From: Candidatus Polarisedimenticolia bacterium
GTDB lineage: Bacteria > Acidobacteriota > Polarisedimenticolia > Gp22-AA2
NCBI GenBank assembly: GCA_035260145.1
Contig: DATFVU010000082.1
Location: 1-25,807 of the forward strand
Reading direction: 5' to 3'
DNA length: 25,807 nucleotides
Positions 1,460 through 2,828 of the stretch are shown piece after piece (positions within the stretch are counted from its first letter, which is position 1; each line of letters begins with the position of its first letter). Below the pieces are notes generated by a model. That model was not told where the DNA came from and ran no database searches. It worked only from the letters and a program-made list of their open reading frames with translations. Both the position numbers and the translations under genes were made by a program.

Positions 1460-2828
1460 GATCCTCCCTCCCGCGGCGCCGCGGCCCGCCGGCGCCTCCG
1501 TCCCGCGGCGCCGGCGAGAAAGGGTTCCGCCAGATCGAGAATCCTCGCCGCCATCGCCTCCTTGGTCATGATCGGAAGCTCGCTCCTGTTGCCGTCCCGA
1601 TCGATCGTGAGCGCGCGGTTGGTATCGGCCTCGAATCCCTCGCCTTTCCGGCCGATCCGATTCGCCACGATCAGGTCGAGATTCTTCCGGCGCAGCTTGC
1701 CGAGGGCGTTCGCTTCGAGATCGCCGGTCTCCGCCGCGAAGCCGACCAGGACCTGTCCCGGCTTCTTGCGCCGTCCGAGCTCCTCCAGGATGTCGGGCGT
1801 CGGCTGGAGTCGCAGGATGACGGCCCGATCCGGGCCCGGCCGCTTCAGAGCCGCTCGTCGCAGCGACTCTTTCTTGATCTTGCGGGACGACCGCTCCTCC
1901 GGACGGTAGTCCGCCACCGCCGCCGCCTTCAGGACGAGATCCGCGCCCGGTGCCTGGTTCAGAGCGGCGCGGAACATCTCGTCCGCCGTCGTGACGAGCA
2001 CCAGGTTCACTCCGGCCGGCGGTGCGAGGTGGGTCGGGCCGGAGAGCAGCGTGACTTCGGCGCCGCGCGCCAGCGCCTCGGCGGCCAGGGCGTATCCCAT
2101 CCTGCCGGTGGACGGATTGCTCAGGTAACGGGCCGGGTCGAGCGCCTCGCGCGTCGGACCGGCGGTTACGAGGACTCGGCGGCCCTCAAGCGACCGCGAA
2201 GTTTTTTTTTAGCGATCGAGAGGGCCGCGTTCACGATTTCTTCCGGCTCGGCCATCCGGCCGATCCCTTCGTCGCCGCAGGCGAGATCCCCCGTCCCGGG
2301 CTCGATGACGCTCACGCCGCGCGACTTCAGAACGGCGAGATTGGCCTGCGTGGCGGGATGCTCCCACATCCAGACGTTCATCGCGGGCGCCACGGCCACG
2401 GGGGCCGTCACGGCCAGGTAGAACGTGCTCAGGAAATCGTCGGCGATGCCGTGCGCGAGCTTGGCGAGGGTGTCGGCGGTCGCCGGGGCGACCAGGAACA
2501 GGTCCAGCCCCCGCGCCAGGGCGATGTGCTGCACGTCGGCGCCGTGCGACAGATCCCATTGACCGGTGATCACCGATTGGCCGCTGAGCGTCTGGAGAGT
2601 GAGCGGCGTGATGAACCGCCGTCCCCCCGGCGTCATGATGACGTGCACCTCGGCCCCGGCCTTGACGAGGCCGCGCACCACTTCCGCGGCCTTGTAGGCC
2701 GCGATCCCCCCGGTCACGCCCAGCGCGATGCGCGTTTTCGACGCTCCCTGACCGGACGCGGCGCCGTCTTGCCCGCCGGCCGGTGCCTTCCTATCGCGAT
2801 CGTCCGGCCCGTCAGCTTCCCGGCTCAC
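1456..2828 (-). CDS. coaBC: Bifunctional CoaBC (PPC decarboxylase/PPC synthetase), interrupted by a -1 frameshift at an A9 run (2202-2210)
   Basis: The CoaC half (2828-2166) has GVTGGIAAYKA, HIALAR, APATADTLAKLAHGIAD, PAMNVWMW and LACGDEGIGRM. The -1 frame after the A9 reads [40 protein letters not shown] and continues into ORF 2100-1456 (AAVADY, KIKK, VGFAAET, KNLDLIVAN). The joined product would be about 457 aa from the GTG at 2828. Confidence 0.93.
2202..2210 (-). other. A9 homopolymer at the frame-transition site in coaBC (candidate slippery site)
   Basis: The minus strand reads GCT AAA AAA AAA CTT. The -1 frame is closed by TAA at the 5' edge of the run and the 0 frame stops 12 codons later at 2166-2168, so the transition is confined to this short interval. 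Confidence 0.8.

Follow-up and report, generated by a model that had tools for sequence, protein, structure and literature searches.

An A9 run conserved at the CoaC–CoaB junction suggests programmed −1 recoding of coaBC in a family of Polarisedimenticolia

CoaB, the phosphopantothenate-cysteine ligase, is essential for coenzyme A synthesis, and the question raised here is how it can be made from a gene in which its reading frame is separated from that of its fusion partner CoaC, the phosphopantothenoylcysteine decarboxylase. The gene, coaBC, lies on the minus strand of a 25,807-nt stretch of a Candidatus Polarisedimenticolia bacterium (NCBI GenBank assembly GCA_035260145.1, contig DATFVU010000082.1, positions 1 to 25,807), which was analysed at its full length and is called the window below. 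The source is a metagenome-assembled genome (MAG) of the Acidobacteriota 'gp22' with 385 contigs, 2.49 Mb, 68% G+C and a completeness of 70%. A preliminary description of the window held that coaBC is split exactly in the linker between CoaC and CoaB by a run of nine adenines (A9) and that a −1 shift at this run restores the full enzyme. Both points were borne out, and the comparison with relatives suggests that the only coaBC of this genome undergoes a conserved, programmed −1 recoding, most likely through transcriptional slippage that adds one A.

The coaBC locus and its read-through product

The features of the junction, with the coding frame of CoaC taken as the 0 frame, are the following.

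2166..2828, minus strand: open reading frame (ORF) of CoaC in the 0 frame, 220 residues, from GTG at 2828 to TAA at 2168-2166; its tail is KKK followed by 11 out-of-frame residues (LRGRLRAAESS), and this is the product of unslipped expression
2202..2210, minus strand: A9 run (T9 on the plus strand), the candidate slippage or frameshift site; exactly nine As, uninterrupted, and the only conserved signal
2209..2211, minus strand: −1-frame TAA that adjoins the run on its 5′ side; in this genome the switch cannot occur further upstream
2186..2188, minus strand: TGA that closes the remaining (+1) frame; it arises where a rare CTT codon for Leu meets the GA of a CoaB-frame Glu codon
2166..2168, minus strand: TAA stop of the 0 frame, inside the Val-Thr codons of the CoaB motif VLVTAGPT
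1456..2208, minus strand: CoaB domain in the −1 frame, 250 residues, with a PF04127 match
2179..2197, minus strand: 6-bp hairpin GCGGTC/GGCCGC (2197-2192 / 2184-2179), starting 4 nt after the run; probably not functional

Both domains were complete, each in its own frame. The CoaC domain (PF02441, Flavoprotein, HFCD; E 3.6e-35) occupied residues 33-203 of the 0-frame ORF, which covered positions 3-183 of the TIGR00521 model, and the CoaB domain (PF04127, DFP; E 1e-67) was matched in the −1 frame from LEGRR onwards over profile positions 1-184. The 0 frame reads SIA-KKK at the run and then runs through its out-of-frame tail to the stop, so the layout and the Pfam domain limits agree with a split exactly in the linker. 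The preliminary description had placed the switch between a −1-frame TAA on the 5′ side of the run and the 0-frame stop at 2166, and both of these stops are there. No single uninterrupted ORF for coaBC was found in the window or in 25 relatives from the same family; the two frames differed by −1 at the run in all of them. The ORF that starts at ATG 2100 had been said to lack the TAGPT..SN motif, and it indeed corresponded only to positions 214-389 of 392 of TIGR00521, with about 30 residues including the motif absent. Between the TAA at the run and ATG 2100, the −1 frame of the window contains no ATG, GTG or TTG. At its other end, the TGA stop of CoaB overlaps the GTG start of the next gene, a member of the uracil-DNA-glycosylase family (GTGA at 1459-1456). 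An exact-protein look-up of the 220-residue CoaC ORF returned no record.

When one A was added to the run, the resulting protein was colinear with the intact CoaBC of seven other families, and KKK was aligned to a basic patch in their linkers (SRR, DRR, RRG, RRR). This read-through product (P0003) scored 438.9 bits on TIGR00521 (cut-off 219.7) and covered profile positions 5-389 of 392 in one stretch, so that the CoaBC equivalog model was matched end to end, as expected if a −1 shift at the run restores the enzyme. It was also aligned in one stretch with the full-length CoaBC structure from Mycobacterium smegmatis (6TGV).

The preliminary description would have been overturned by an intact coaB elsewhere in the genome, which would make this copy a pseudogene. 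The genome contained one DFP (CoaB) match and one coaBC-type Flavoprotein locus, and a single DFP match was also the rule in nearly all relatives, where the few second matches came from fragments of the one gene, cut by the end of a contig. Purifying selection acts on both halves: the median pairwise ratio of non-synonymous to synonymous substitution rates (dN/dS) was 0.30 for CoaC and 0.24 for CoaB at a synonymous rate (dS) of about 0.8. The CoaB frame was open for 211-247 codons wherever the contig permitted, with no further stops or frameshifts. A conservation profile was then computed on 26 genomes that had been found by homology only. Over the 27 nt from the run to the 0-frame stop, the mean entropy at the three codon positions of the −1 frame was 0.20/0.07/0.69. 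The variation is concentrated at the third position of the −1 frame, and therefore translation is already in that frame upstream of the 0-frame stop. Taken with the TAA at the run, this selection on the −1 frame leaves the run itself and the three or four codons after it as the place of the switch.

Conservation of the run, and a second run in a DUF374 gene

The homologous coaBC locus was collected from every relative having it. In all 26 readable genomes of the GTDB family, which represent 17 genera, CoaC and CoaB were encoded in different frames with the same −1 offset. The run was present at the junction of each of them, as A9 in 25 and as A10 in one, and the A10 genome also requires −1. 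A JGI metagenome scan, in which the pattern was the conserved downstream sequence and excluded the run itself, gave 53 contigs, and all 52 with enough upstream sequence had exactly A9 located 12-13 nt upstream; the junction of one of them (L119) was identical to that of the window. In most other genomes of the class, which comprises 119 genomes, one open frame spans both domains, and an in-frame coaBC without the run was found in the sister family f2 (five genomes) and in families f3, f4, f5, f6, f7 and f9. Because the run is family-wide and the sister and other families are in frame and free of it, the trait has a single origin at the base of the family, with no loss in the sample.

An assembly error is excluded as the source of the frame break, because the same run and the same break occurred in 26/26 genomes and 52/52 readable contigs. 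Chance is likewise excluded as the origin of the A9 run, because runs of this kind are far too rare in a 68% G+C genome: three A/T runs of at least nine were observed compared with 0.26 expected, and AAA accounts for only 11.8% of Lys codons. AAG makes up 88% of them, and the run is nevertheless kept as AAA. In a complete (100%) 4.6-Mb genome of the same genus, only two A-runs of at least nine were present, and these were the coaBC site and the DUF374 site described below. The alignment with relatives that the preliminary description had called for thus showed that run and frame break are conserved, and its view of a programmed event rather than an error or a pseudogene is upheld by the family-wide conservation, the single CoaB and the purifying selection on both halves.

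A few records at this locus deserve separate mention. The junctions of three SMAG records labelled Binatia (L052), Patescibacteria group (L053) and Dongiaceae (L078) were identical to those of the family members L011, L035 and L020, respectively, and their NCBI organism labels look wrong. In family f13, one 10-contig genome (L031, G067:C7:282000-284100) had a +1 offset between CoaC and CoaB and no A-run, which looks like an isolated frameshift or an assembly error. No in-frame fused protein of the family was found among 5.8 billion protein clusters. The closest public fused protein (P0004, 68% identical) was considered as an in-frame revertant and rejected, since it carries an in-frame deletion of about 18 residues, in which linker, run and SLEGRRVLV are lost, and comes from a single contig. 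A fused coaBC of a family-level relative with about 77% DNA identity is on one contig of one sample (L194, JGI Ga0495653_0062588, positions ~1600-1650). Its in-frame deletion of about 18 residues takes out the A-run together with the linker and with SLEGRRVLV, which forms the first strand of CoaB, and is either real or an assembly artefact.

Conserved stops close both wrong frames, and unusual codons are needed to form them. The 0-frame stop was at the same position in 26/26 genomes, as TAA in the window and as TGA in most relatives. It requires that Val is encoded by GTG or GTA, which together make up 44% of Val codons, and 8 of the 13 outgroup loci use GTC. In 24/26 genomes, a stop follows in the +1 frame within 12 codons, and the CTT that creates the +1-frame TGA was kept in 23/26 despite making up 5.8% of Leu codons and despite variation at neighbouring third positions. 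The −1-frame TAA at the run was not universal and was shared by those relatives with a T before the run in the register of 20/26, as the run occupies two codon registers, one in 20 genomes and the other (register-2, A_AAA_AAG) in six.

A second gene of the window is broken in the same way.

6106..6761, minus strand: DUF374 gene broken by an A10 run at 6341-6332, with the same −1 offset as coaBC

After KKK, the 0 frame of the DUF374 gene continues as an R/S-rich tail, and a TAA abuts the run in the −1 frame. The conserved C-terminus (LRSWDAFQIPFP...) is encoded in the −1 frame, whose stop overlaps the start of lpxB in a GTGA. GTGA overlaps with the next gene end both −1 frames of the window (1456-1459 and 6106-6109), and they would be reached only by ribosomes in the recoded frame. 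Within the family, 16/20 genomes had A9 or A10 with the −1 offset and 4/20 were in frame, with the same length and no run. The site was also present in the sister family f2 (5/5) and in single genomes of f8 and f12, and a control pattern gave no hits. By this distribution, the DUF374 site is the older of the two and is reversible; the coaBC site arose later, and no reversion of it has been seen so far. The second site also shows that the clade had already used the A-run device before the coaBC site arose.

Slippage on the run and its alternatives

The DNA as encoded would yield CoaC alone, and CoaB would be made only as part of a CoaBC fusion through a −1 move inside A9. In the mechanism that we consider most likely, RNA polymerase slips on the T9 template, where the whole 9-bp RNA:DNA hybrid would be homopolymeric, and some transcripts receive one extra A. 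The A10 mRNA would then be translated into CoaBC in the ordinary way, and A9 mRNAs, as well as A8 and A11 mRNAs, would end early at the conserved stops and give free CoaC. Both products, CoaC and CoaBC, are presumably used, and the conserved stops in the wrong frames are consistent with this but do not prove it. The site may set the ratio of CoaC to CoaBC in the oligomer.

Several features suggest that the slip occurs in transcription rather than in translation. The run was always at least nine long in two genes, and never seven or eight. Slippage is favoured because nine As are strictly kept where seven would suffice for a slippery heptamer, even though AAG makes up most Lys codons, and because the run occurs in two codon registers. 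It is also favoured by the lack of a conserved downstream structure and of an upstream Shine-Dalgarno (SD)-like element, and by the closed +1 frame: a ribosome that shifts −1 never enters the +1 frame, whereas transcripts with two extra As or with one fewer do. That all sites need the −1 frame fits as well, because one added A is the commonest slipped product at nine Ts in Thermus dnaX (PMC5009743). Finally, conservation of both the run and the ORF arrangement in non-identical homologues, which is what Baranov et al. in 2005 asked of functional slippage, was seen in 26 genomes from 17 genera and in 52 contigs; at that time only insertion sequence (IS) elements and mapW qualified (PMC1088944).

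Other points weigh against slippage as the mechanism. The data analysed are DNA sequences, all genomes are MAGs of uncultured bacteria, and they are related, so that the counts overstate their independence. Furthermore, every A9 contains A_AAA_AAA in the 0-frame register, and the six register-2 genomes offer A_AAA_AAG, the heptamer of the dnaX type. Programmed −1 ribosomal frameshifting on either heptamer of an A9 mRNA would lead to the identical product, as would sliding of the ribosome along poly(A), and the biological outcome would again be CoaC plus CoaBC, as with slippage. Such a ribosomal mechanism is the main alternative, but a clearly less probable one. A slippery heptamer is available in the correct register in every genome, every site found requires −1, which is the direction of this mechanism, and A-rich heptamers are the commonest frameshift motifs in bacteria (PMC3711429). 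Yet seven As would suffice for it when nine were strictly kept in two genes and about 100 sequences, the conserved +1-frame stop on a rare codon would have no role, and neither stimulator was conserved. The 6-bp stem proposed in the preliminary description does exist 4 nt after the run, but all six of its pairs were present in only 7/24 relatives, where the changes broke pairs and none was compensatory. The fold of the window was no more stable than shuffled sequences (z = −0.04), and the consensus downstream fold was negligible (alifold, −2.3 kcal/mol). Because it is not conserved, lacks compensatory changes and is not more stable than shuffled sequence, the hairpin is probably not a frameshift stimulator. 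The 5-nt core of an SD-like stimulator was found within 22 nt upstream of the run in 1/26 genomes, and no conserved upstream nascent-RNA hairpin was found in the 26-genome family set.

A true gene fission, in which CoaB starts at the GTG Val of VLV-TAGPT and overlaps the coaC stop (GTGA), is how gene callers annotate the locus. It could draw on the fact that a GTG in the CoaB frame overlaps the 0-frame TGA in 23/26 genomes, that public gene calls begin a 237-residue CoaB at V/M-TAGPT, and that separate coaB and coaC genes are known in some bacteria (NCBIfam coaB_strep, coaC_strep). We regard it as very unlikely, since the codon is GTA, not a start, in the window and two relatives, and the window offers no other start before ATG 2100. 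The residues SLEGRRVLV, whose codons begin nine before the GTG, evolve as coding sequence of the −1 frame and match the DFP profile from position 1; a start at TAGPT would cut them off and would leave the conservation of A9 without a reason. An own start of CoaB upstream of the complete domain, as in the Streptococcus type, was not found, and the public 237-residue call is almost certainly wrong. Phase variation, in which replication slippage would make the run alternate within a population between an A9 off state and an A10 on state, seems even less credible. Homopolymers are mutational hot spots, and the A-run of the linker varies sporadically by ±1 in single Bacteroidota genomes, but all of about 78 independent assemblies were out of frame, the 5.8 billion clusters held no in-frame fused protein of the family, and most cells cannot do without an essential enzyme. 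A sequencing or assembly artefact or a decaying pseudogene would fit a fragmented MAG and the tendency of homopolymers to cause errors on some platforms, but we give it the least credence of all, given the identical state in genomes and contigs from many projects and, for a pseudogene, the selection on both halves, the lack of further stops or frameshifts and the absence of another CoaB copy.

Other long A-runs and known recoding systems

The third A9 run of the genome (L157, G000:C202:2442-2450) lies on a phage-like contig, close to where a portal-like ORF ends. In its −1 frame, a TGA abuts the run and the sequence beyond it reads as plausible protein, in frame with a MuF-like ORF downstream; the phase of G+C at third codon positions (GC3) steps by −1 at the run. 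Apart from those in coaBC and DUF374, the A9 runs in the relatives G004, G011, G025 and G026 were rejected as recoding sites, as they resemble gene ends or terminator-like sites between genes, with no convincing frame break. The motif AGGC-A9-CCACC recurs in genomes of f1 and f2 (L180 in G004, L189 in G025, L193 in G026), and in G004 it is at the 3′ end of a long ORF.

A search across GTDB for A9 a short way upstream of TAGPT (L044-L102) found 31 species with an in-frame run of A9-A12 in the linker of an intact coaBC, mainly Bacteroidales and Chitinophagales but also Cytophagales, Pelagibacterales and others. An offset of −1 was present in an Azobacteroides endosymbiont (L056) and in L084 and L093, and an offset of +1 in L087 (A13). 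The linker between CoaC and CoaB could tentatively be seen as a recurrent, convergently evolved slippage site. If so, cells in several phyla would deliberately make free CoaC beside CoaBC, and the dodecamer built on a CoaC core would carry fewer CoaB than CoaC domains. In this clade, A-run slippage might then serve gene expression more generally, with its earlier use in the DUF374 gene beside lpxB, and might gate translationally coupled downstream genes.

There is ample precedent for programmed homopolymer slippage in dnaX, in IS elements and in a small number of other genes, but, to our knowledge, none for a core metabolic enzyme that needs it to make its essential half. Reviews and a full-text search yielded no description of recoding in coaBC/dfp or DUF374, and none of the coaBC site was found in the slippage literature on Acidobacteria or Polarisedimenticolia. 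The locus would be an essential coenzyme A enzyme that can be made only by recoding, in free-living, high-G+C soil bacteria, and stable across 17 genera. It also matters for annotation, as pipelines call coaBC split or a pseudogene and start CoaB truncated, so that the coenzyme A pathway would be wrongly scored as broken or oddly organised in Polarisedimenticolia MAGs. The two genes form a clean natural recoding system, with different ages and the same signal in one clade, where DUF374 has in-frame revertants and coaBC has none. This contrast can be used to ask why the cell keeps a short and a long CoaBC.

The bifunctional CoaBC enzymes (Dfp; TIGR00521; 6TGV) have the same two domains in the same order with a short basic linker, but they are encoded in one ORF, whereas here the linker holds the frame break. 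The CoaBC dodecamer is built around CoaC, its CoaB dimers face outwards, and a loop of ten residues connects the domains (PMC7794376). Free CoaC could plausibly join the CoaC core, so that each particle would carry fewer CoaB domains.

The closest parallel is dnaX of Thermus thermophilus, where transcripts of nine Ts can carry one additional A or several, the proportion falling as the number rises, and the hybrid is 9-10 bp long (PMC5009743). Both sites have exactly nine As in a G+C-rich genome, flanking stimulators are unnecessary (PMC5009743, PMC3711429), and a short and a long protein are made from one gene (tau and gamma in Thermus, through a mixed mRNA population). The gene family and the phylum are different, slippage is predicted here, and the arrangement is reversed: in Thermus dnaX the long product is read directly from the DNA frame and the short one arises by slippage, whereas here the DNA frame encodes the short CoaC and the essential CoaBC needs the slip.

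In Escherichia coli dnaX, a −1 frameshift occurs on A_AAA_AAG with an upstream SD element and a downstream stem-loop. The poly-A slippery heptamer, the −1 direction and the two products of one gene are shared with coaBC, but neither stimulator is conserved here and nine As are kept rather than seven. The GeneTack survey listed two-ORF genes joined by −1 recoding at A-rich sites, such as magnesium chelatase and the dnaX of Chlorobi with A7-A10 (PMC3711429). Like coaBC, these genes are annotated as adjacent ORFs, have fused homologues in other species and carry a conserved poly-A at the junction. Neither coaBC/dfp nor DUF374 is named in the parts of the survey's text and supplements that were available to us (PMC3711429), and the present clade was unknown at that time.

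Lastly, poly-A frameshifts in insect endosymbionts (Buchnera, Blochmannia) are rescued by slippage, as mentioned in PMC5009743, so that frameshifted housekeeping genes remain functional through an A-run, as proposed here. Those genomes are A+T-rich, under weak selection and contain many variable tracts. In contrast, the genomes studied here come from free-living bacteria and have 68-73% G+C; in them, A-runs of at least nine are almost absent and the coaBC site is invariant across 17 genera.

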